From: Thermodesulfobacterium commune DSM 2178
GTDB lineage: Bacteria > Desulfobacterota > Thermodesulfobacteria > Thermodesulfobacteriales > Thermodesulfobacteriaceae
Direction of reading: 5' to 3'
Assembly: GCF_000734015.1 (NCBI RefSeq)
Contig: NZ_CP008796.1
Span: 1,110,001-1,142,000 of the forward strand
DNA: 32,000 bases
The notes under the pieces were generated by a model that saw only the letters and a program-made list of their open reading frames with translations, searched no databases and was not told where the DNA came from. This document shows positions 2,739-25,436 of the stretch, piece by piece. The translations under genes and the position numbers were made by a program. How positions within the stretch are numbered: position 1 is the first letter of the stretch; every line of letters starts with the position of its first letter.

Positions 2739-3200
2739 ATGAGCCTTCTTATTTTTAAAAAGTTGGCCGAAGAAAAAATAAGAGAAGCCATGGAAAACGG
2801 AGAGTTTGACCATCTTGAGCTTAAAGGGAAACCCCTTAAACTTGAAGAAAATCCTTTTGTTCCTGAAGACCTAAGGGTAGTCTATAAAATACTTCAAAAC
2901 GCAGGGTTTCTACCTAAGGAAGTAGAACTCCGAAAAGAGATCTCTAAATTAGAAGAACTTTTAGAGGAAGACTTGCAAGATGCTTATTCAAAGGTTAAGA
3001 AACTTTCAACTCTTCTTTTTCATCTAAACCAAATAAGAAAAGGCCCTATAAACATTCCTGACGAATATTTTTGCAAAGTAGCTGAAAAAATCAAGCTGGC
3101 TAAAGAACGTAGTAAGGAACCTACAGAAAAAAAAGAAATCGATTGGATGAAACTTCAAACCTTTCTATACATTTCTTCTTTAAAGCCAAGAAAAAAATAA
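2739..3200 (+). CDS. DnaJ-like DUF1992 domain protein
   Basis: 153 aa. AEEKIREAMENGEFDHLELKGKPL..ENPFVPEDLR matches the DUF1992 (DnaJC28-like) N-terminal motif. Confidence 0.7.
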   Translation: MSLLIFKKLAEEKIREAMENGEFDHLELKGKPLKLEENPFVPEDLRVVYKILQNAGFLPKEVELRKEISKLEELLEEDLQDAYSKVKKLSTLLFHLNQIRKGPINIPDEYFCKVAEKIKLAKERSKEPTEKKEIDWMKLQTFLYISSLKPRKK

Positions 3201-3203
3201 ACG

Positions 3204-4337
3204 ATGAAAAAGTTGTCTGACGAATTTTTCATGAAACTTGCTATCAAAGAGGCGGAAAAAGGGTTAGGCTACACTTCTCCTAATCCAGTGGTAGGGGCGG
3301 TCCTGGTAGATCCTGTTACTCACACAGTAATCTCCAAAGGTTATCATAAGCACTACGGAGGACCTCATGCAGAAGTAGTAGCCATAGAAAAAGCAAGGGG
3401 GAGAACCCAAGGGGCTATCCTTTATGTTACCTTAGAGCCTTGCAACCATCATGGGAAAACCCCTCCGTGCACCGAAAAAATTTTAGCAAGTGGTATCCAA
3501 AAGGTGGTCTGTGGAATAAGGGACCCAAACCCTGTAGCTAAAGGAGGCCTTGAGTTTCTTGCTTCAAAAGGAATAGAAGTCAAAGCCGGGGTATTAGAAA
3601 GGGAAGTAAAAATTTTAACCCGTTTTTTTCTTAGCAGAATCCTAAGAAAAAGACCCTGGATTTTACTAAAAGTTGCGGCAAGCTTAGACGGCAAAATTGC
3701 TACTTCTACCGGTGATTCAAAATGGATAACCGGGGAAAAAGCAAGAGCATACGCCCATAAGCTAAGAGGAATGTTTGATGCCATCCTGGTTGGGAAAAAC
3801 ACGGTAGTTAAAGACAACCCCCTTCTTACCTGCAGGTTAAAAAAAGGAAAAAACCCTATAAGGATTATTCTTGATACCAATCTAAGTCTTAGCTTGGATT
3901 ATAAGGTCTTTCAAACCTTAGATGAAGCTCAAACGATTATAGTCTGCCAGGAAAAGGTGCCCCAAGAAAAAGAAAAAGCCTTTCAAAACGCAGGGGTTCT
4001 CGTTTGGAAACTTCCGTTAAAAAATAGCAAAATAGACCTGAACTTTTTGATGGAAAAATGTTTAGAACATGGTATCAACTCAATAATGGTTGAAGGAGGC
4101 GCCAGAGTCCATGGGAGTTTTTTAGAAGAAGGTTTGGTAGATGAGGTCTGTTACATGATCGGCCCTGTGATTATTGGAGATAAAAAAGGAATTTCTGCGA
4201 TAGAGAGAGATCCAATACCAACTCTTAAAGAGGCTGTACGCCTTCATGACCTAAATGTTAAAAAATTAGGAGACTCTTATATGTTTCATGGGTACACAGA
4301 GCAAGGGATTAGTCTTATCGAAACTCCTTTAAAATAG
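3204..4337 (+). CDS. ribD: Bifunctional riboflavin biosynthesis deaminase/reductase RibD
   Basis: 377 aa. Cytidine-deaminase zinc motifs HAEVVAI and PCNHHGKTPPC. The C-terminal reductase domain has KVAASLDGKIA and MVEGGA. Confidence 0.92.
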   Translation: MKKLSDEFFMKLAIKEAEKGLGYTSPNPVVGAVLVDPVTHTVISKGYHKHYGGPHAEVVAIEKARGRTQGAILYVTLEPCNHHGKTPPCTEKILASGIQKVVCGIRDPNPVAKGGLEFLASKGIEVKAGVLEREVKILTRFFLSRILRKRPWILLKVAASLDGKIATSTGDSKWITGEKARAYAHKLRGMFDAILVGKNTVVKDNPLLTCRLKKGKNPIRIILDTNLSLSLDYKVFQTLDEAQTIIVCQEKVPQEKEKAFQNAGVLVWKLPLKNSKIDLNFLMEKCLEHGINSIMVEGGARVHGSFLEEGLVDEVCYMIGPVIIGDKKGISAIERDPIPTLKEAVRLHDLNVKKLGDSYMFHGYTEQGISLIETPLK

Positions 4338-4875
4338 TCTTAATTTCTTCTTTAAGAACCTCTAAGGGTTTTTCTGAAGAAAAAAGCCTATGTGCCCTTT
4401 TGGCTTTTTCTTCTAAGGGGAATTGTAAGCTTGCCAGTTTTAAAACCAACTCAGGAAAGGTTGACCTTGTCTTAATCCTTTCTTGCTGGGTTTTTGAGGA
4501 ACAAACAACCACCCAAACCTCATCAAACATCTCCTCCCATCCACATTCAAACAAAAGAGGGACCTCAACAAAAACCACCTTTTCTCCTTTTTGCCTACAG
4601 GTTTCAAAAAATCTTTTTAATTCAGCCTTGACCGCTGGATGCAAAACCTCTTCTAAAGACTTTTTTGCCTTTTCATCTGATATGATTTTTTCTAAAATCT
4701 TTTTTTTATCCAAAGTCCCAAACAACTGGTAAATTTTTTCTCTAATCTCAGGTTGCTCATAAAGTTTTTTTACTACCTCATCACAAGAAAAAACAGGACA
4801 GCTTAATTCCCGTAAAAGGTTCAATAAGGTGGTCTTACCTGTAGCAACTCCTCCAGTAATGGCTATTTTTTTCAT
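4315..4875 (-). CDS. coaE: Dephospho-CoA kinase
   Basis: 186 aa. P-loop IAITGGVATGKTT at the N-terminus, with family-typical size. Confidence 0.85.
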   Translation of the reverse strand: MKKIAITGGVATGKTTLLNLLRELSCPVFSCDEVVKKLYEQPEIREKIYQLFGTLDKKKILEKIISDEKAKKSLEEVLHPAVKAELKRFFETCRQKGEKVVFVEVPLLFECGWEEMFDEVWVVVCSSKTQQERIKTRSTFPELVLKLASLQFPLEEKAKRAHRLFSSEKPLEVLKEEIKTILKEFR

Positions 4876-5795
4876 TTTTTAACCAGGCTTAAATAAACTT
4901 GAAAATCTTCAGGGATAGGGGCTTCAAATTCCATCTCTATGTTTGAGATAGGGTGGAAAAATTTTAACCGAAAGGCATGAAGCATCAACCTTGGTGGTTT
5001 AGGAACATCAGGTTTTAACCCTCCATAGATAGGGTCTCCCAGGATTGGGTGCCCTAAAAAAGAAAAATGAACCCTTAGTTGATGGGTTCTTCCGGTAACA
5101 GGTTTGGCAACAACTAGACATGCTTTGTTAAGATACTCTTTTACCTCATATAAAGTAACAGCAAGCCTTCCTTCTTTCAGAACTGCCATCTTTTTTCTGT
5201 GGGTAGGATGGCGTCCGATAAAGGTTTCTATTTTACCTTGCTGGGGTTTAAGATGTTTGTAGAGAATAGCTAAATAGTTTTTCTCTATCAATCTTTGTTT
5301 AAAAGCCTCTACCAGCAACTTATGAGACATGTCATTTTTGGCAACCAGCATAAGACCTGAGGTATCCTTGTCTAAACGGTGTACTATCCCAGGACGTATT
5401 TTCCCTCCGATGGCTGAGAGATTTTTAAGTCTTTTTAATAAGCCATGGACCAAAGTATCGTCCAAATGCCCTGGGGCAGGATGAACGACAATCCCGGCAG
5501 GTTTGTTGATAATAGCTATATGTTCATCCTCGTAAATTATGTCAAAAGGAACATCCTTAGGATTAAGCTCTAAAGGTTTAGACTTAGGGATTTTAACCTG
5601 AATAAAGTCTTGTATTTTGATTTTATAACTTGGTTTTACTGGTCTACCGTTTACCAAAACCAAGGATGTTTCGATCAACTCTTGGACTCTACTTCGACTT
5701 AAGTCTGAAATTTTTTCTTTCAAAAAAACATCTAACCTCTTTCCTCCATCATGTTCTTCTACCTTAAATTCTAACACTTTTTCTTCCATAGCCAC
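4872..5795 (-). CDS. rluD: RluA-family 23S rRNA pseudouridine synthase (RluD-like)
   Basis: N-terminal S4 domain (GKRLDVFL..SRSRVQELI) and catalytic HRLDKDTSGLMLVAKN. The track start at 5795 is GTG; an ATG two codons downstream (5789) is an alternative. Confidence 0.88.
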   Translation of the reverse strand: MAMEEKVLEFKVEEHDGGKRLDVFLKEKISDLSRSRVQELIETSLVLVNGRPVKPSYKIKIQDFIQVKIPKSKPLELNPKDVPFDIIYEDEHIAIINKPAGIVVHPAPGHLDDTLVHGLLKRLKNLSAIGGKIRPGIVHRLDKDTSGLMLVAKNDMSHKLLVEAFKQRLIEKNYLAILYKHLKPQQGKIETFIGRHPTHRKKMAVLKEGRLAVTLYEVKEYLNKACLVVAKPVTGRTHQLRVHFSFLGHPILGDPIYGGLKPDVPKPPRLMLHAFRLKFFHPISNIEMEFEAPIPEDFQVYLSLVKK

Positions 5796-19658: not shown

Positions 19659-20638
19659 AAACCTTCCTCCAAGGGATTTATACCAAACCTTTCTTTAAGA
19701 TAAAGATAGCCTTTTTGGGTAAGCACCCTTCCTTTTCTTGTGCGAGCAAGCATCCCTAACCTGATGAGGGCTGGTTCATAGATACTTTCTAACTCTTCAA
19801 CACTTATACCTGAAGATAAAGCAAGGGACCCTAAACCCACCGGACCACCCTTAAACTCTTTATATAATGTTAAAAGGCACTTTCTGTCCTCAGGAGTAAG
19901 TCCCCATTCGTCTATGTCTAAAAGCTCTAAAAACTCTTTTACCAAGCCTTCGTCTACTTTTATAGGTTCTTCTGACTGGCTACGAGTTAACCAGGCAAAA
20001 TCTTTTAACCTCCTTAATAAGTTTATAGCCTGCCTGGGGATGCCCTTTGAAGCCTTGGCTAAACTTAAGGCTGGCTTTTCGTCTATGTAAAGACCGTAAG
20101 CTTTACCTACTTTAATGATAATCTCTTTTAATTCTTCGTCAGTATAAAAATTAAGTTTAAAAATAAGCTGAAACCTGTCTCTTAGTGGTGCCAAGCAAAG
20201 ATTAGGTTTATTGGTTGCGGCAATCAGCGTAAACTTAGGAAGGCTTAACCTGATGGTTTTGGCCACCTGACCTTTACCGATCACGATGTCTAACGCAAAG
20301 TCTTCCATGGCTGCATAAAGCACCTCTTGACATACCTTAGGCATACGATGTATCTCATCTATAAAAAGTATATCCCCTTCCTTAAGGTTTGTAAGGACTG
20401 CGGCTAAGGTGCCTGTTTTATCGAGGACAGGACCTGAGGTAATCTTAAGGTCTCTTCTTAACTCAAAAGCTATAATCCTTGCTAAGGTTGTTTTCCCAAG
20501 ACCTGGAGCACCTATAAAAAACGTATGAGGAAAAACTTCTTGTCTGCTTTTTACAGAAGGAATGTATATCTTAAGCTCTTCTTTTATTCTTGTTTGACCT
20601 ATAAATTCTTCAAGACTTGACGGTCTATATAAAACCAT
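19640..20638 (-). CDS. ruvB: Holliday junction branch migration helicase RuvB
   Basis: 332 aa. RPSSLEEFIGQ, Walker A GAPGLGKTT and Walker B LFIDEIHR. Confidence 0.93.
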   Translation of the reverse strand: MVLYRPSSLEEFIGQTRIKEELKIYIPSVKSRQEVFPHTFFIGAPGLGKTTLARIIAFELRRDLKITSGPVLDKTGTLAAVLTNLKEGDILFIDEIHRMPKVCQEVLYAAMEDFALDIVIGKGQVAKTIRLSLPKFTLIAATNKPNLCLAPLRDRFQLIFKLNFYTDEELKEIIIKVGKAYGLYIDEKPALSLAKASKGIPRQAINLLRRLKDFAWLTRSQSEEPIKVDEGLVKEFLELLDIDEWGLTPEDRKCLLTLYKEFKGGPVGLGSLALSSGISVEELESIYEPALIRLGMLARTRKGRVLTQKGYLYLKERFGINPLEEGLCLFSK

Positions 20639-20733
20639 ACAAAATTATTATACCACAAAAGAGAAGTCCAAATAGTATCAAAAAAACTCATTAAAAAAAT
20701 TCAAAGCTTAAAATCTTTTTAACAAAAACAAAC

Positions 20734-20762
20734 TTGACAAAAAAGGATAGAAGCTGTAAATT
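20734..20762 (+). promoter_or_regulatory. Putative sigma-70-type promoter of nrdD
   Basis: TTGACA (20734..20739), a 17-nt spacer, then TAAATT (20757..20762). Confidence 0.5.
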
Positions 20763-20768
20763 TAAAAT

Positions 20769-20816
20769 TAACTAAATATTGTGGTATTTTCAAAGAAAAA
20801 ACACAATATATTGTAG
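20769..20816 (+). promoter_or_regulatory. Two NrdR boxes upstream of nrdD
   Basis: Box 2 ACACAATATATTGTAG (20801..20816) closely matches the 16-bp palindromic NrdR-box consensus acaCwAtATaTwGtgt. Box 1 TAACTAAATATTGTGG (20769..20784) is weaker. The boxes start 32 bp apart (about three helical turns) between the promoter and the SD. Confidence 0.7.
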
Positions 20817-20837
20817 TTAAACTAACAGGAGGTCTTG

Positions 20838-23800
20838 ATGGAGCCGTTAGTCAGAAAAAGAAACGGCAAAGTTGTTCCTTTTTCTCGTTTTAGGATCATA
20901 AACGCTATCCATAAGGCTATGAAGGCTACCCAAATAGGCACCAAGGCTGATGCTGAAAAAATAGCTGATGCTGTTTCTATCTTTCTTTACAGAAATTATT
21001 TTAAAAAGGGAGACATTCCTCATGTGGAAACCATCCAGGACATCATAGAAAGAACTTTGATGGAAAGAGGGTTCCCTGAGGTAGCTAAGGCTTATATTCT
21101 TTATCGTGAAAAGAGGCGTCAGGCAAGAGAAATCGGGCAAGCCTTAGTTGACGGTATTAACCTTATAGAGGAATATATCGGCAATGAAGACTGGAGGGTA
21201 AAGGAAAACTCTAACATGAGTTTTAGCCTTCAAGGGCTTAATTTTCATGTAAGTTCTTCTATCGTTGCCCGTTATTGGTTAGAAAAGCTTTATCCTAAGG
21301 AAATCGCCGAAGCTCATAGAGAAGGGGACTTTCATATTCATGACCTTGGCTGTCTTTCAGCCTATTGCATGGGATGGGACCTATATGACCTTCTTTTAAG
21401 AGGATTTGGAGGGGTGAGTGGTAAGGTTGAAAGTGCCCCTCCTAAGCATTTTAGGTCTGCCCTTGGACAGATAGTAAACTTCTTTTATACCCTTCAAGGA
21501 GAAGGGGCTGGGGCTCAAGCCTTTTCTAACTTTGATACCCTCCTTGCTCCTTTTGTAAGGTATGACAAACTAACCTACCCTGAAGTAAAACAATGTATGC
21601 AGGAGTTTCTCTTTAATGTAAATGTGCCAACCAGAGTAGGTTTTCAATGCCTTTCTGAAGATACAGAAATTTTAACTCCAAATGGTTGGAAGAGGTGGAA
21701 TGAAGTTAATGAAGGAGATTTTATCTATACTTTTAATCTTGAAAAGGGGACTATAGAACCTGCAAAGGTTACTTATGTGTTTAGAAGGAAGTATGAAGGC
21801 ATAATGTATAACTTAAAAAATCGCAACCAGGATCAGCTTATCTCACCTGGCCATAGAGTTGTAAGACAAATATTTAATACAGATAAATTTATCCTTCAGC
21901 CTATTGAGGAGATACTTGGGTTTAAATCTCCTATTCCAATACCTGTTACAGGAGAAAACTCAAAAGAAGATTATCCCATTTCAGATGAGGAATTAAAGCT
22001 TTGTGCCTGGGTTCTTTCAGAGGGTTCAATAGAAAAAGACGGATCTAAAAGAGTTAGTATTTATCAGTCTAAGGAAAAACATCCTGAAAATTACGAAGAA
22101 ATCAAGGCTTTACTTGAAAAATTGAACCTTAAATATACGGAAAGAGAACAGGAATCCTGGGGGAAATGTATCCATATAAGACTTTCTCCAGAGTCAAGCA
22201 AGTTTGTTCATGCGGTAATGGGAAATCCAAAAAAGATATTCCCTTTTTATCTTTATCAGTTAAGTAAAAGACAGGCTCGTCTTTTCCTTGAAACTTATGC
22301 TAAGGGTGATGGATGGATTGATGGAGGGAGGATAAGAATTACAACTACTGATAAAGATTTTGCTGATGGACTTATGGCAGTGGGAGTTCTCGCAGGATAC
22401 AATGTTTCCATAAGAGAACGCAAACCCGAAATAAATAATAAAAAATTAAGATATGAGCTAACCTTTACTCAGACTAAAACTGATTATATCCAACAAATAG
22501 ATAAGGTTCCTTACTGTGGTATCATCTGGTCAGTTCATACCGAAAATGAAACTGTAATTGCAAGAAGAGCTGGGCAGGTGTTTATAACTGGAAATACACC
22601 TTTTACCAATCTTACCTTTGATCTTAAGCCTTCAAAGCTTTATGCCAAGGCAAATGTCATAATAGGAGGGAAACCTCAAGACAGTGTGTATGAGGAGTTT
22701 CACAAAGAAATGTCTATGATAAACAGGGTTTTCTGTGAGTTAATGATGGCAGGAGATGCTAAGGGAAGGATTTTTACCTTTCCTATTCCTACTTATAACA
22801 TCACTAGGGATTTTGACTGGGATAATCCTGAATATGAACCTCTCTGGGAGATGACCAGAAAATACGGGATACCTTATTTTGCAAACTTTGTCAACTCAGA
22901 CATGGACCCAGAGGATGCCTTCAGCATGTGTTGTAGGCTTCGTCTTGACAAGAGAGAACTGAGGAAAAGAGGAGGAGGGTTGTTTGGGGCTAACCCTTTG
23001 ACCGGAAGTATAGGGGTGGTTACCATCAACATGCCAAGGCTTGGATATCTTGCTACCTGTGAAGAGGATCTTTTTGAAAGGTTAGAAAGGTTGATGGAAC
23101 TTGCTAAGGTATCCCTTGAGATCAAAAGAAAAGTGATCGAGGATTTTACTGAAAAAGGACTTTATCCATATTGTAAAGTTTACCTAAGCTCGGTAAAAGA
23201 GGCGAGAGGTGCTTACTGGGCTAACCATTTTTCTACCATAGGACTTGTAGGGTTGAATGAGATGTGTCTTAACTTTTTAGGTAAGCCCATATATGATCCA
23301 GATGCCAAGGAATTTGCTATAAAGGTATTAAAGTTTATGAGAGATAAAATTGCAGACTTTCAGGAAGAAACAGGAAATCTTTACAATCTTGAGGCCACCC
23401 CAGCAGAAGGAACAAGCTACAGACTGGCAAAAATTGACAAGAAAAAATTCCCTAGGATCAAAACCGCAGGTACTGAAGAAGCTCCTTACTACACTAATTC
23501 TTGCCATCTCCCTGTTAACTATACAGACGATATTTTTGAGATACTTACCCATCAAGATGACCTACAGATACTTTTTACTGGTGGAACGGTCGTTCATCTT
23601 TTTATCGGAGAAGAAATCCATGATACCAACGTGGTAAAGGACCTGGTAAAAACCGTGGTAGAAAACTTTAGGCTTCCCTATTTTTCCATCACACCCACCT
23701 TTTCTGTCTGTCCTGTACATGGCTATCTACCTGGGAGACATGACTTCTGCCCCTATCCTCATTCTGAAGCTGACTTAAACAGGTTTGGGGTAGAAATGGA

Positions 23801-23849
23801 GCTTCCGATTAGTCTGGCTAAAAATTTTGCTAATACAGCTATAAGTTAA
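20838..23849 (+). CDS. nrdD: Anaerobic (class III) ribonucleoside-triphosphate reductase NrdD, intein-containing; it ends before the glycyl-radical motif
   Basis: N-terminal ATP-cone (VRKRNGKVVPF...ILYREKR). Class III core, and the first part of the C-terminal zinc knuckle (FSVCPVHGYLPGRHDFCPY). ATG at 20838, 5 nt after AGGAGG; the track start at 20835 is TTG. TAA at 23847..23849. Confidence 0.9.
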   Translation: MEPLVRKRNGKVVPFSRFRIINAIHKAMKATQIGTKADAEKIADAVSIFLYRNYFKKGDIPHVETIQDIIERTLMERGFPEVAKAYILYREKRRQAREIGQALVDGINLIEEYIGNEDWRVKENSNMSFSLQGLNFHVSSSIVARYWLEKLYPKEIAEAHREGDFHIHDLGCLSAYCMGWDLYDLLLRGFGGVSGKVESAPPKHFRSALGQIVNFFYTLQGEGAGAQAFSNFDTLLAPFVRYDKLTYPEVKQCMQEFLFNVNVPTRVGFQCLSEDTEILTPNGWKRWNEVNEGDFIYTFNLEKGTIEPAKVTYVFRRKYEGIMYNLKNRNQDQLISPGHRVVRQIFNTDKFILQPIEEILGFKSPIPIPVTGENSKEDYPISDEELKLCAWVLSEGSIEKDGSKRVSIYQSKEKHPENYEEIKALLEKLNLKYTEREQESWGKCIHIRLSPESSKFVHAVMGNPKKIFPFYLYQLSKRQARLFLETYAKGDGWIDGGRIRITTTDKDFADGLMAVGVLAGYNVSIRERKPEINNKKLRYELTFTQTKTDYIQQIDKVPYCGIIWSVHTENETVIARRAGQVFITGNTPFTNLTFDLKPSKLYAKANVIIGGKPQDSVYEEFHKEMSMINRVFCELMMAGDAKGRIFTFPIPTYNITRDFDWDNPEYEPLWEMTRKYGIPYFANFVNSDMDPEDAFSMCCRLRLDKRELRKRGGGLFGANPLTGSIGVVTINMPRLGYLATCEEDLFERLERLMELAKVSLEIKRKVIEDFTEKGLYPYCKVYLSSVKEARGAYWANHFSTIGLVGLNEMCLNFLGKPIYDPDAKEFAIKVLKFMRDKIADFQEETGNLYNLEATPAEGTSYRLAKIDKKKFPRIKTAGTEEAPYYTNSCHLPVNYTDDIFEILTHQDDLQILFTGGTVVHLFIGEEIHDTNVVKDLVKTVVENFRLPYFSITPTFSVCPVHGYLPGRHDFCPYPHSEADLNRFGVEMELPISLAKNFANTAIS
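21648..22595 (+). mobile_element. Intein (316 codons) with a LAGLIDADG homing-endonuclease domain, inserted in nrdD
   Basis: The junctions are VGFQ|CLSEDTEILTPNGW ... GQVFITGN|TPFTNLTF. Block B reads SPGH. Two LAGLIDADG-like motifs are present (LCAWVLSEGSI and LFLETYAKGDGWI). Block F-like IIWSVHTENETVIA. The C-terminal Asn is followed by a +1 Thr. Confidence 0.85.
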
Positions 23850-23873
23850 AACTCCCACCCAAGGAGGATTGAG

Positions 23874-24056
23874 ATGAAAGAAGAAAAGACTCAAAAGGTA
23901 AAAGTGGTTCCTTGTGAGGTTTATAGCAGAGTGGTTGGTTATTTTAGACCGGTACAGAACTGGAATAAAGGTAAACAACAAGAGTTTAACGAAAGAAAAA
24001 CTGTAAGACTTGACGGTTCTTTCAAAGTAAATTTTTCTCCTGTAGGAAAACATTAA
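23874..24056 (+). CDS. Stand-alone NrdD glycyl-radical domain ORF (60 aa)
   Basis: MKEEKTQKVKVVPCEVYSRVVGYFRPVQNWNKGKQQEFNERK... carries the class III RNR glycyl-radical signature (RxxGY...WN.GK..E). AAGGAGGA (23861..23868) lies 5 nt upstream of the ATG. The ORF is in the same frame as nrdD, 8 sense codons after its TAA. Confidence 0.8.
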   Translation: MKEEKTQKVKVVPCEVYSRVVGYFRPVQNWNKGKQQEFNERKTVRLDGSFKVNFSPVGKH

Positions 24057-24290
24057 TGGAAGACCAAAAAAGGGAGTGTTACCTCCCTTTAGTAAAGGAA
24101 AAAAAGCTTAAAGAAAAAGGTTGGGGCTGGGGTCTGTGATTTTTGTGGAAAATCCCAGTCCTTTTGTTATCTCTGTACCCACTGCGGTCTTACCATTTGT
24201 CAAACTTGTTTTATAGAAAATCAGAGAATGTTTACCAGAAGTGGGGTAACCTGGGTTTGTCCTTCTTGCCTTAACTGGGAAACTCTTTAG
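24056..24290 (+). other. Cys-rich (9 Cys) zinc-finger-like mini-ORF, frame-disrupted
   Basis: The ATG at 24056 overlaps the upstream stop (TAATG) and gives MEDQKRECYLPLVKEKKLKEKGWGWGL*. The +1 frame has no start codon. From 24135 it reads CDFCGKSQSFCYLCTHCGLTICQTCFIENQRMFTRSGVTWVCPSCLNWETL*. A-runs lie between the two parts. Confidence 0.35.
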
Positions 24291-25090
24291 ACTAAAAATT
24301 TAGCTATTAAAGGGGCATGGTCTGACGGCTTAGGTTTAGTTCGAAAACTTTTTTCTACATAAACGTCTCCTAACTTTTCTAACAAAGGCCTAGTGATAAG
24401 AATATGGTCAAGACGCATCCCCTGATTTTTCTTAAAAGCCCCAAACTGATAATCCCACCAGGTAAAAACCCCTCGGGCATCGGGATACTTCTCTCGCAAA
24501 GTATCATAAAAACCAAAAGAAAGAAGGTCAAAAAAAGCTCTTCTTTCCTTTTCAGTAAAACAGATATGTCCTTCTAATAAACCTGGGGCAAACACATCCT
24601 TATCTTCTGGGGCTACGTTAAAGTCTCCCATAAGGATGATAGGGTCCTCAGGAGAAAAGGTTTTCTCAAAAAACTCTTTGAGCTGCCAGAAAAAACTTAG
24701 TTTGTAGTAATAGTAATCTGACTCAGGTTGACCTCCGTTTGGTATATACACCGAAAAAACCCAAAGAGAAGCGAAACCAAAGCCCTCAACCTCTATCCCA
24801 ATAAGCCTTTCTTCTGCATCAGGAAAACTCTCAGGCTCTGAAGTATTTTCGAAACCCCGTTTTATAATCTTTGGAGCCACCTTTGAAAGTAAAGCCACTC
24901 CATTTCTCCCCTTCCCTCCAGAATGAACTACATGATAACCTATCTCTTGATAGGGTTTAAAAGGGAAATCTTCGGTCTTTACCTTGGTTTCTTGTAAAGC
25001 AAGGAGGTCTGGACCGACCTCCTTTAAAAATTCTAAAACCTGTTCTTTTCTAACTTTTATAGAGTTAACATTCCAGGTAGCAACTACCAT
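24287..25090 (-). CDS. xth: Exodeoxyribonuclease III
   Basis: 267 aa. WNVNSI...LLALQETKV at the N-terminus and SDHAPL at the C-terminus are typical of the Xth/APE1 family. Confidence 0.9.
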   Translation of the reverse strand: MVVATWNVNSIKVRKEQVLEFLKEVGPDLLALQETKVKTEDFPFKPYQEIGYHVVHSGGKGRNGVALLSKVAPKIIKRGFENTSEPESFPDAEERLIGIEVEGFGFASLWVFSVYIPNGGQPESDYYYYKLSFFWQLKEFFEKTFSPEDPIILMGDFNVAPEDKDVFAPGLLEGHICFTEKERRAFFDLLSFGFYDTLREKYPDARGVFTWWDYQFGAFKKNQGMRLDHILITRPLLEKLGDVYVEKSFRTKPKPSDHAPLIAKFLV

Positions 25091-25101
25091 GATAAATAGA
25101 A

Positions 25102-25272
25102 TTACCCAGCTTTTTTCTTACATCCTCTTTTCTTAGGCTCACAAGAAGAGGATGAATTAGCTTCTGTCCCTTCTTTAACCATCGTGTTCATCTCTCCACA
25201 TTTAGGGCATTTTTTAGGCTTACACCTTGATTCTTTTGTTTCTCCGCAGTTACTACATTTCCACAACCCCAT
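25102..25272 (-). CDS. Small zinc-ribbon protein (56 aa), function unknown
   Basis: MGLWKCSNCGETKESRCKPKKCPKCGEMNTM... with CxxC..CxxC and a basic Cys-containing tail. The ATG at 25272 is preceded by GAGGAGGAGG. The track start at 25290 lies inside that SD. The gene ends 12 nt upstream of xth. Confidence 0.55.
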   Translation of the reverse strand: MGLWKCSNCGETKESRCKPKKCPKCGEMNTMVKEGTEANSSSSCEPKKRGCKKKAG

Positions 25273-25436
25273 AGTCCACCTCCTCCTCAAAATAATATAA
25301 AACTTAACTTTTATTAATACTCATTTTAGAAAAATTTCAAGACCTTTAATACGAAATTTTCTACCTGTTTTTATCTGAGGGAAATTTTTTTTTTACTGAA
25401 CATCAACTTAAATATGGTTAATATTTAAAAGTTAAG

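Follow-up and report, generated by a model that had tools for sequence, protein, structure and literature searches.

The anaerobic (class III) ribonucleotide reductase (RNR) encoded in the window, the whole 32,000-nt stretch of DNA analysed here, is probably (about 0.86) a naturally split, obligate two-subunit enzyme made of a large chain and a 60-residue radical peptide. The peptide would be an obligate subunit because the large chain is without a glycine loop. The original prediction had held that nrdD ends at a TAA without its glycyl-radical motif and that the motif lies in a separate 60-codon ORF with its own strong Shine-Dalgarno sequence (SD) and ATG. The ORF list, the sequence and the ends of the Pfam and NCBIfam profiles confirmed both points, the second ORF being at 23874..24056. 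Among the readings it had offered, a genuine two-piece RNR with a separately made radical part is the one supported and singled out by the comparative data.

The large-subunit gene, nrdD, is a 1004-codon ORF (20838..23849; all coordinates are on the plus strand unless stated) encoding an intein-bearing precursor with ATP-cone, NRDD and LAGLIDADG intein domains (Pfam, NCBIfam). The NRDD barrel domain scored above the curated cut-off (PF13597, 577.7 vs 26.2 bits), as did the match to NF006126 (1017 vs 548 bits). The ATP-cone spans residues 5-95 (20847..21119; PF03477, E = 1e-22). The 316-aa intein (21648..22595; CLSEDTE...FITGN followed by TPF; Pfam/NCBIfam matches) is inserted at the conserved GFQ/TPFTN motif of nrdD, and the syntenic orthologue of Thermodesulfobacterium sp. 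TA1 (686 aa) has no intein. The finger-loop motif SMCCRL (residues 697-702; 22923..22940) contains a cysteine pair that is invariant in 54 relatives (C382/C383 in alignment numbering) and that, by analogy with the family, is the expected thiyl-radical site.

The C-terminal part of the large chain carries a putative zinc site, C959-x2-H962...C972-x3-H976 (CPVH...CPYPH; 23709..23762), all four residues of which are invariant (alignment A4). These residues likely form the C-terminal metal site, with Cys2His2 in place of the usual Cys4. The split leaves the second zinc knuckle intact, the complete Cys-His-Cys-His set being on the large chain. Cys14 of the peptide was considered as a fourth zinc ligand shared between the chains and rejected, because this position is V/T/A/M in many orthologues and the large chain has four invariant ligands itself. 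Behind the site is a C-terminal tail, SEADLNRFGVEMELPISLAKNFANTAIS (23763..23846; consensus CPYPHTEExLxRYGxExELxxxxLxxLxxxAY), whose first half is common to fused relatives and whose second half (ELP..L..L...AY-like) was found only in split forms; its dN/dS is 0.25-0.32. The tail ends in FSVCPVHGYLPGRHDFCPYPHSEADLNRFGVEMELPISLAKNFANTAIS, directly followed by the TAA (23847..23849). The stretch of about 50 codons that had been noted between the second knuckle and the radical motif does exist, but only part of it, ~28 codons out of 51, is restricted to split forms, because fused relatives already have 16-23 residues between CP and CEVYSR. Across the whole clade, the CPxxH second knuckle is followed by a (S/T)E(E/D)L..(Y/F)G segment.

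Upstream of nrdD are an SD (AGGAGG, 20827-20832), an alternative TTG start (20835) and a promoter-like site, TTGACA-17-TAAATT (20734..20762), with 10/12 consensus matches, which is a consensus match only. An NrdR-box-like palindrome, ACACAATATATTGTAG (20801..20816), lies 22 nt before the start codon with 2 mismatches to the consensus ACACWATATATWGTGT; the match is only modestly above chance. In a consensus scan, the region immediately in front of the small ORF had no promoter-like site as good as the one upstream of nrdD.

The small ORF (23874..24056; beginning MKEEKTQKVKVVPCEVYSRVVGYFRPVQNWNKGKQQEFNERK) encodes 60 aa including the glycyl-radical loop EVYSRVVG22YFRPVQNWNKGKQQEF, with the Gly22 codon at 23937-23939, as indicated by Pfam/NCBIfam matches, relatives, dN/dS and an AF2 model. 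A 24-nt intercistronic spacer (23850..23873) separates it from nrdD and contains the SD AAGGAGGA (with AAGGAGG; 23861-23868), 5 nt before the ATG at 23874. The R-V-x-G-Y motif is absent from the barrel polypeptide and present on this ORF instead, and the family profiles are divided between the two: for NRDD, the large ORF stops at position 528 of 562 and the small ORF covers 533-560 (E = 5e-10), while in NF006126 (684 positions) the match of the large ORF reaches position 655 and that of the small ORF spans 650-682. At E <= 0.01, the small ORF matched only PF13597 in Pfam, not PF01228. Its AF2 model, based on 30 homologues, reached a pLDDT of ~90 for residues 11-40, with a hairpin (E15-18/E23-26) having Gly22 at the turn, then a helix (32-39). 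A Foldseek search of this 60-aa model against the PDB had no significant match, T. maritima NrdD being third (E = 5.5), and a phmmer search of the 124-aa junction region against the PDB had none. A 390-aa query retrieved the expected NrdD structures from the PDB, with the Gly loop only weakly aligned.

The ORF list and Rfam revealed no ORF, homing endonuclease, intron or intein in the 24-nt spacer, and scanning 20500-24400 against Rfam gave chance-level matches only. The intein lies ~1.2 kb upstream of the split point and is unrelated to the split. A hairpin, CTCCCACCCAAGGAG, that would sequester the SD was rejected: its plus-strand stem consists of four pairs only, too few to mean anything in a thermophile. 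Downstream, a G+C-rich hairpin (24069..24090, no strand assigned; scored on the minus strand, a consensus match only) lies between the convergent small ORF and xthA and is a possible terminator shared by both.

To profile the split across relatives, the closest homologues of both chains were compared. Among the 120 closest large-subunit clusters (at least 65% identity), 118 end before the Gly motif and only two (P0137 and P0232) are fused. The small ORF had 461 matches, and the best 120 of the 461 are all stand-alone (41-89 aa); the best matches are from Thermodesulfobacterium, Thermosulfurimonas, Caldimicrobium, Thermodesulfatator, Anaerolineae and one archaeon. Residues E15, Y17-Y23, R25-V27, W30, G33 and K34 are invariant. 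The small sequences were left out of the mixed alignment of large and small chains, in which MAFFT scattered them. The two-cistron layout was found in ~42 of 80 GTDB species loci from about ten phyla, including the isolates Thermodesulfatator and Thermodesulfobacterium TA1, and the complete TA1 genome has a syntenic orthologue with the same split. One locus (L012) initially scored as fused is split; the apparent fusion was a spurious high-GC ORF artefact. In most split loci outside Thermodesulfobacteriaceae, the gene order is large nrdD, small ORF, nrdG. The dN/dS of the small ORF was 0.10 against TA1 (dS 1.04) and 0.115 against a second relative (L001), and by this measure the small ORF is evidently under purifying selection.

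As to whether orthologues have a stop, SD and ATG at the same place, all three are conserved in near relatives, and the arrangement recurs in hundreds of independent assemblies (NCBI, JGI, ENA, Logan), complete isolate genomes included. This recurrence, the purifying selection and the varying frame offset exclude, as general explanations, the base-call error, the nonsense mutation with reinitiation and the stop readthrough that had been listed as alternatives. A strain-specific pseudogene, with a stop due to faulty sequencing or assembly or to a nonsense mutation of recent date, has nothing in its favor but the stop itself, in a gene that is undivided in model organisms. Independent assemblies and complete isolate genomes have an identical architecture, the dN/dS is ~0.1 and the stop has the same location in 118 of the 120 nearest large subunits, so comparative sequence data have already refuted this explanation and we give it practically no credence. 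It was also pointed out that the two ORFs share a reading frame. This is true here, where only the TAA and 8 sense codons lie between them, and a trace of readthrough at TAA 23847 could therefore yield some fused chain in this window. The shared frame is without significance, however, as the offset to the large stop is 0, 1 or 2 in ~15, 13 and 10 loci, about equally frequent. A single fused chain made by readthrough or by ribosome bypass of the 24-nt spacer, with the separate ORF incidental, is very improbable: spacers range from an ATGA stop/start overlap (three loci) to more than 100 nt, and one (L023) holds a 1.2-kb IS element with an IS630-like transposase between two intact genes, so neither frame relation nor landing site is conserved. 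The ATG with its SD is conserved (SD match of at least 5 nt before the ATG in 41 of 50 loci), the junction has no Rfam element, and viruses carry the small ORF alone.

The peptide might instead not be the radical carrier of this large chain, acting as a regulator or titrator of NrdG or with another partner, while the large chain is inactive or uses another radical source. Orphan viral copies and the extra copies beside full-length NrdD in Patescibacteria indicate that the peptide can exist apart from a truncated NrdD, and nrdG is not adjacent in this window, which has no ORF with CxxxCxxC in its 32,000 nt. We consider this unlikely, if less so than a fused chain, because the large chain keeps all catalytic hallmarks but the glycine loop, the residues preserved in the peptide are exactly those that do not vary among the Gly loops of fused NrdD, the two genes adjoin in every cellular split locus examined, and the rare fused members of the clade join both parts by a 6-residue linker. 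Rejoining of the chains into a canonical NrdD by trans-splicing or enzymatic ligation is brought to mind by the intein that the gene already hosts, but it seems slightly less probable even than the fused chain. Among orthologues, neither the end of the large tail (17-94 residues) nor the start of the small chain is constant in length or sequence, the junction has no intein block or conserved nucleophile, and no intein family match was detected outside residues 272-587.

In the two-subunit enzyme that we favor, the large chain after intein splicing would be ~688 aa, with ATP-cone, ten-stranded barrel, finger-loop cysteines and a complete Cys-His-Cys-His zinc site, and would end within the loop that connects, in fused relatives, to the glycyl-radical hairpin. 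The peptide, made from the nrdD transcript by means of a separate SD and ATG, would supply the hairpin with Gly22 at its tip and the short helix that follows, and would have to bind the large chain non-covalently, placing Gly22 beside the finger-loop cysteines. NrdG, assumed to be encoded elsewhere in the genome, would put the radical on Gly22; we infer both this activation and the assembly in trans. Oxygen cleaves glycyl-radical proteins at the glycine, and the split may confine such damage to a 7-kDa peptide that could be remade and swapped without resynthesising and re-splicing a chain of 80-115 kDa. With the loop supplied in trans, the oxygen-labile part would be cheap to replace, and, by analogy with the biology of pyruvate formate-lyase (PFL) and GrcA, this could be the selective advantage of a peptide that is potentially replaceable. 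The split may also make the glycine accessible to the activase with no tethered domain having to leave the barrel. The AF2 model of a fused relative (P0137) had a mean pLDDT of 81.7 and fell below 50 over residues 687-712 (the last 26), where the alignment has no depth, so it is uninformative on loop docking. In fused NrdD, the glycyl-radical domain has been described as a mobile, rigid-body element (PMC11226230).

Some copies of the small ORF stand apart from any large subunit. A viral contig (L087) has only the SD and the small ORF (92% identity to that of the window), between DNA methyltransferase genes and a portal gene. Two others (L088 and L089) have an intact small ORF behind a decayed nrdD remnant, and in ~60 further viral loci the small ORF is an orphan, no NrdD barrel being encoded within 4 kb. 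The orphan viral copies suggest an unrecognised class of auxiliary genes. Searching deposited phage genomes with the small ORF (tblastn) gave two weak matches only. More tentatively, and in our opinion with the odds somewhat against it, the 6-7 kDa peptide could be a diffusible, exchangeable cartridge that is charged by NrdG off the enzyme and swapped in after oxygen cleavage of the resident copy, and viruses with just the cartridge gene could thereby re-arm the large subunit of an infected host. If true, this would be the first glycyl-radical enzyme with an obligate, separately encoded and horizontally traded radical-site subunit, and the spare-part principle known from PFL would then hold for ribonucleotide reduction as well.

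Canonical single-chain NrdD/NrdG systems (phage T4, E. coli, Thermotoga maritima 4COI/4U3E, Prevotella copri 8P23) share with the split enzyme the ATP-cone, the barrel, the finger-loop cysteines, a metal site at the C-terminus and the glycine loop E-x-Y-S-R-V-x-G-Y...W-N-x-G-K, and NrdG is adjacent in most related loci. In the split enzyme, the loop belongs to a 60-aa peptide with its own gene and its own translation start, Cys-His-Cys-His takes the place of four Cys in the metal site, and an extra tail on the large chain is apparently specific to the split form. GrcA (YfiD) is likewise a small stand-alone protein with only the radical glycine loop; both it and the peptide presumably dock into the barrel of a larger partner, and both have phage-borne copies. 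Phage T4 Y06I is such a phage-borne, GrcA-like spare part for PFL. GrcA is homologous to the PFL C-terminus (PF01228), whereas the peptide matches only the NRDD family, and GrcA backs up a PFL having its own glycine domain. The GrcA-type spare part of the original prediction was amended accordingly, as the large chain here has no such loop. According to a 2026 review, spare-part proteins are known only for formate-lyases (PMC13450708).

The Patescibacteria proteins of ~92 aa (L026 and L044) have the same NrdD-type loop and are encoded between nrdD and nrdG. The NrdD beside them retains a loop itself, and the small protein contains a separate CxxC...CxxC zinc ribbon; this resembles a true spare part more than an obligate subunit. 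Another RNR catalytic chain encoded by two adjacent genes is the class II NrdJa/NrdJb of Pseudomonas aeruginosa, whose C-terminal piece is needed for turnover (PMC4520616, PMC9669993). That enzyme belongs to a different class and is split in a different place, NrdJb carrying a zinc-finger and reducing-cysteine tail, not the radical site. Aeromonas phage Aeh1 NrdA and the nrdD of T4 (I-TevII intron) and Jug phages are also genes in pieces that still give active enzyme (PMC3653736, PMC12880540). Those splits are due to mobile elements (homing endonuclease, group I intron) at varied positions, whereas the split here is without a mobile element, at the same position across many phyla, with the radical loop as its boundary.

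The fission happened more than once. Split forms of Elusimicrobia and Hippea show a C4 knuckle as well as heptad-like helices on the two pieces, and they group with fused sequences that also have the C4 knuckle. At least two fissions are, on this sequence evidence, independent.

In current descriptions, a glycyl-radical enzyme is one chain, and its C-terminal domain has to swing out of the barrel for activation. We found no description in the literature of a split class III RNR with a separate radical peptide. If the enzyme is always two-piece, the radical loop would be workable as a free subunit in the enzyme making all DNA precursors of strict anaerobes, providing a natural system in which to study access of the activase to the glycine and possible exchange of the loop, with a peptide small enough for synthesis and isotope labelling. 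A two-piece RNR may also explain the tolerance of vent and sediment anaerobes to oxygen pulses. Existing annotation lists the small ORFs as 'hypothetical' or a 56-aa 'reductase', and surveys of RNR content mis-score split genomes because the large ORFs look complete to annotation pipelines.

The nrdD ORF of the window runs for 1004 codons on the forward strand, from an ATG at 20838 behind AGGAGG (a likelier start than the TTG at 20835) to a TAA stop at 23847-23849. It is followed by a 24-nt intercistronic spacer that holds the Shine-Dalgarno (SD) sequence AAGGAGGA at 23861-23868, and by a small ORF of 60 codons from ATG 23874 to 24056. The ORF list and the sequence bore out all the coordinates in the original prediction. 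Pfam and NCBIfam assigned an ATP-cone, a LAGLIDADG intein and an NRDD domain (577.7 bits; NF006126 at 1017 bits, cut-off 548) to the large product. Its NRDD match ends at position 528 of the 562-position profile, and the small product takes up that profile at 533 and follows it to 560 (E = 5e-10). The two ORFs thus share out a single family profile cleanly, confirming that nrdD stops before its glycyl-radical motif, which lies in a separate ORF.

A consensus scan of the window detected a hairpin 3' of the small ORF and no promoter-like site of note between the two ORFs, and most simply they would share one transcript. The nrdG gene is absent from the 32-kb window; in most loci of other lineages where barrel and Gly loop are on separate ORFs (hereafter, split), it lies directly 3' of the small gene. 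An NrdR-box-like palindrome, ACACAATATATTGTAG (20801-20816), is located 22 nt 5' of the nrdD start, with a half-site-like ATATTGTG about 30 nt further 5'; the signal is modestly above chance, as 5 of 100 shuffles had at least two matches at ≤3 mismatches. On the reverse strand, at 25102-25290, a 62-aa Cys-rich, zinc-ribbon-like ORF (CSNCG...CKPKKCPKCG) is encoded between xthA and an OprB-like gene, and its position is kept, as a 55-aa gene, in the complete genome of Thermodesulfobacterium sp. TA1 (CP043908.1). The intein (316 aa, residues 272-587, window 21648-22595) interrupts the conserved GFQ/TPFTN motif of nrdD and is polymorphic: several relatives of 1003-1180 aa have it, and it is missing from TA1's syntenic orthologue and from the majority of relatives 686-690 aa long.

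Error, pseudogene or recoding as the source of the split was ruled out by three independent searches. The small ORF has 461 relatives in NCBI, JGI, ENA and Logan assemblies, from sources including Thermodesulfobacterium, Thermosulfurimonas, Caldimicrobium, Thermodesulfatator, Anaerolineae and an archaeon, and the best 120 of the 461 are all stand-alone (41-89 aa). Invariant in their alignment are E15, Y17-S18-R19-V20-V21-G22-Y23, R25-P26-V27, W30, G33 and K34. Searching with the intein-free large chain, we found that 118 of the nearest 120 clusters (at least 65% identity) stop before any Gly motif and have window-like tails; the other two (P0137 and P0232) are fused, with barrel and loop on one chain, via a short linker (e.g., ...KYGIEVNSRKQIPCEVYSRVVGYF). 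A GTDB scan of one genome per species returned 80 loci, classified by script except for L012, which was corrected by hand, its split having been masked by a spurious high-GC ORF. About 42 of these are split and about 33 fused, and in two an additional small Gly-loop gene accompanies a full-length NrdD. Among the split loci are the isolate Thermodesulfatator autotrophicus S606 and MAGs of Thermodesulfobacteriota, Aquificales, Anaerolineae, Spirochaetota/Leptospirales, Fermentibacteria, WOR-3, Elusimicrobia, Hippea, Micrarchaeia and a gammaproteobacterium. TA1, syntenic with the window (ruvB, nrdD, small ORF, xthA, OprB-like, feoB), has the same split and no intein. A base-call error or a nonsense mutation, both raised in the original prediction, is thus rejected by the same split in the nearest clusters, the GTDB loci and TA1. 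In Thermosulfurimonas sp. F29, the annotated large subunit (P0220, 747 aa) continues in a different frame through the small ORF for about 57 residues, and the small ORF has an annotation of its own, P0042; P0220 is probably a gene call carried too far in GC-rich DNA.

Stop readthrough had been considered as well, and the small ORF had been noted to be in frame with nrdD. The coordinates behind this are right, but the relation has no meaning: counted from the large stop, the small ORF is in frame 0 in about 15 split loci, in frame 1 in about 13 and in frame 2 in about 10, so the window's in-frame arrangement is chance and readthrough cannot be the conserved mechanism. Separate initiation is instead indicated at 41 of 50 junctions, which have an ATG with an SD match of at least 5 nt located 3-12 nt upstream, and three junctions have an ATGA stop/start overlap. 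The combination of stop, SD and ATG, earlier proposed as something to look for in orthologues, was found there: the window's near relatives keep TAA, SD and ATG, and the TA1 junction has diverged in sequence yet retains a stop, GGAGGTG and ATG. In a Spirochaetota MAG (L023), an IS630-like transposase gene (3860-4927) is inserted between the large and small cistrons, and both are intact despite this, with an intact nrdG next. The small ORF is under purifying selection, with dN/dS (Nei-Gojobori) of 0.10 against TA1 (dS 1.04) and 0.115 against locus L001, and substitutions mostly at third codon positions; the large-chain tail had values of 0.25-0.32.

Canonical fused NrdDs follow the pattern ...TPTFSICPxHGY..GEH..CPxC....PCEVYSRVVGY, in place of which the window's clade has CPVHGY...CPYPH. 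C959, H962, C972 and H976 are invariant in 54 relatives, and a complete four-ligand site therefore resides on the large chain; Cys14 of the peptide is dispensable, since many orthologues have V, T, A or M at this position. The conserved segment C-terminal to CPYPH, (S/T)E(E/D)L..(Y/F)G.E.E, is also found in the fused relatives L072 (CPSRHSEEDLRRYGARDASGRAFVPCEVYSR), L010 and P0137, and the split point is the linker between this segment and the strand ..VPCEVYSR. Most split forms have an extra tail of 15-35 residues (ELP..L..L...AY), which some Anaerolineae and Leptospirales splits lack. Based on alignment to solved NrdDs, the cut separates the metal site from the buried Gly loop. The C-terminal region of Prevotella copri NrdD is described as consisting of a zinc site, the buried Gly loop and a tail at the surface, and behaves as a mobile rigid body (PMC11226230). 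AF2 modeling of the peptide with 30 homologues (pLDDT ~90 at residues 11-40) predicted a hairpin whose strands (15-18 and 23-26) are joined by a turn bearing Gly22, then a helix at 32-39. Many small subunits (alignment A1; L002, L005, L007-L009, L013, L031 and others) end in a Cys-rich tail (..CGCGA, ..SCGCGT, ..ACCGS, ..GCNCGCEC) that the window's peptide lacks; such a tail might serve in redox chemistry or as a second metal site.

In a rough neighbour-joining tree, built from the final 330 residues of the barrel and without support values, window-type splits formed one large clade spanning phyla, with L010 the sole fused member inside, and the Elusimicrobia splits formed a separate clade with fused sequences as neighbours. 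This second, independent type (Elusimicrobia L031, L033, L049, L068, L070, L071 and L077, and the Hippea MAG L019) retains the Cys4 knuckle and has heptad-like helices on both pieces (...CPKCKAEKIEAIEKQIALLEEQLYSK before the stop, and MTAQERKNIENKITELKAAKE..G..CEVYSR), a sequence pattern that suggests a coiled-coil docking device. The helix that ends the large chain in this type reads ..IEAIEKQIALLEEQLYSK, and the one that starts the peptide ..QERKNIENKITELKAAKE. A Micrarchaeia archaeon and a gamma MAG hold other, isolated splits. With these and the separate Elusimicrobia/Hippea type, fission at the same structural boundary happened on two occasions at the least, and probably on more.

Scanning IMG/VR yielded 80 loci, four of them with 92-96% identity to the window's small ORF. 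In L087 the homology extends from the SD through the small-ORF stop (gene at 1879-2058, peptide 92% identical), with two DNA methyltransferase genes upstream and an SU10-type portal gene downstream. L088 and L089 (~3000-4180) share this phage context and have an internally deleted, frameshifted nrdD remnant, then an intact small ORF. L096, L116 and about 60 other loci encode a small NrdD-type Gly-loop ORF of 40-100 aa, with neither an NrdD barrel (tblastn E ≤ 1) nor an nrdG motif within 4 kb. The one in L156 (~3990-4120) lies in a temperate-phage replication module with integrase, RecE-like exonuclease, Sak4, SSB and helicase genes. A small gene that viruses retain without the large one must act in trans, and no other indirect evidence speaks as strongly for a peptide that is free and functional. 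These genes may represent an unrecognised class of viral auxiliary gene. Three metagenome contigs (L081, L083 and L084) break within nrdD and run past the small ORF into portal or head-tail adaptor genes; the nrdD 3' end is therefore common to host and virus contexts, which probably causes these assembly breaks.

The two-piece RNR among the readings originally proposed is thus upheld by two cistrons with their own initiation signals, conservation, purifying selection, recurrence and the small gene alone in viruses: this is a real, conserved and widespread two-subunit form of class III RNR. Fragmentation of phage nrdD by introns or homing endonucleases is documented (PMC3653736, PMC12880540). 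In a literature search with most subscription journals outside its reach, we found neither a documented conserved barrel/Gly-loop split of NrdD nor, in full text, a split or autonomous NrdD radical domain, and Pfam, NCBIfam and PHROG have no family for the small protein. Class II NrdJa/b and Aeh1 NrdA are also split RNRs but are cut elsewhere, the latter by a mobile element.

From what is known of the family, the peptide would dock non-covalently with Gly22 facing the finger-loop cysteine motif (SMCC) of the large chain, and NrdG would make the radical. If oxygen cleaved at the glycine, the loss would be confined to the peptide, which could be cheaply replaced; the large chain is costly here, as intein splicing is required as well. 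Access for the activase may also be easier with a free loop. The closest functional analogue is GrcA/YfiD, which serves PFL, and by this analogy a replaceable radical-bearing subunit is a plausible biochemical consequence. Unlike GrcA/YfiD, the split-NrdD peptide has no PF01228 match and its partner lacks a glycine loop of its own.

In Patescibacteria (L026, 5153-5437; L044, ~5140-5430), nrdD is full-length and encodes its own Gly motif, and between it and nrdG lies the gene of a ~92-aa protein with a CxxC...CxxC ribbon and a near-identical Gly loop. This protein has the look of a genuine GrcA-style spare part, in this case for class III RNR. It forms at least 120 clusters (P0241-P0360), one of which is named Minisyncoccus archaeiphilus (MNSN_06970) by its source.
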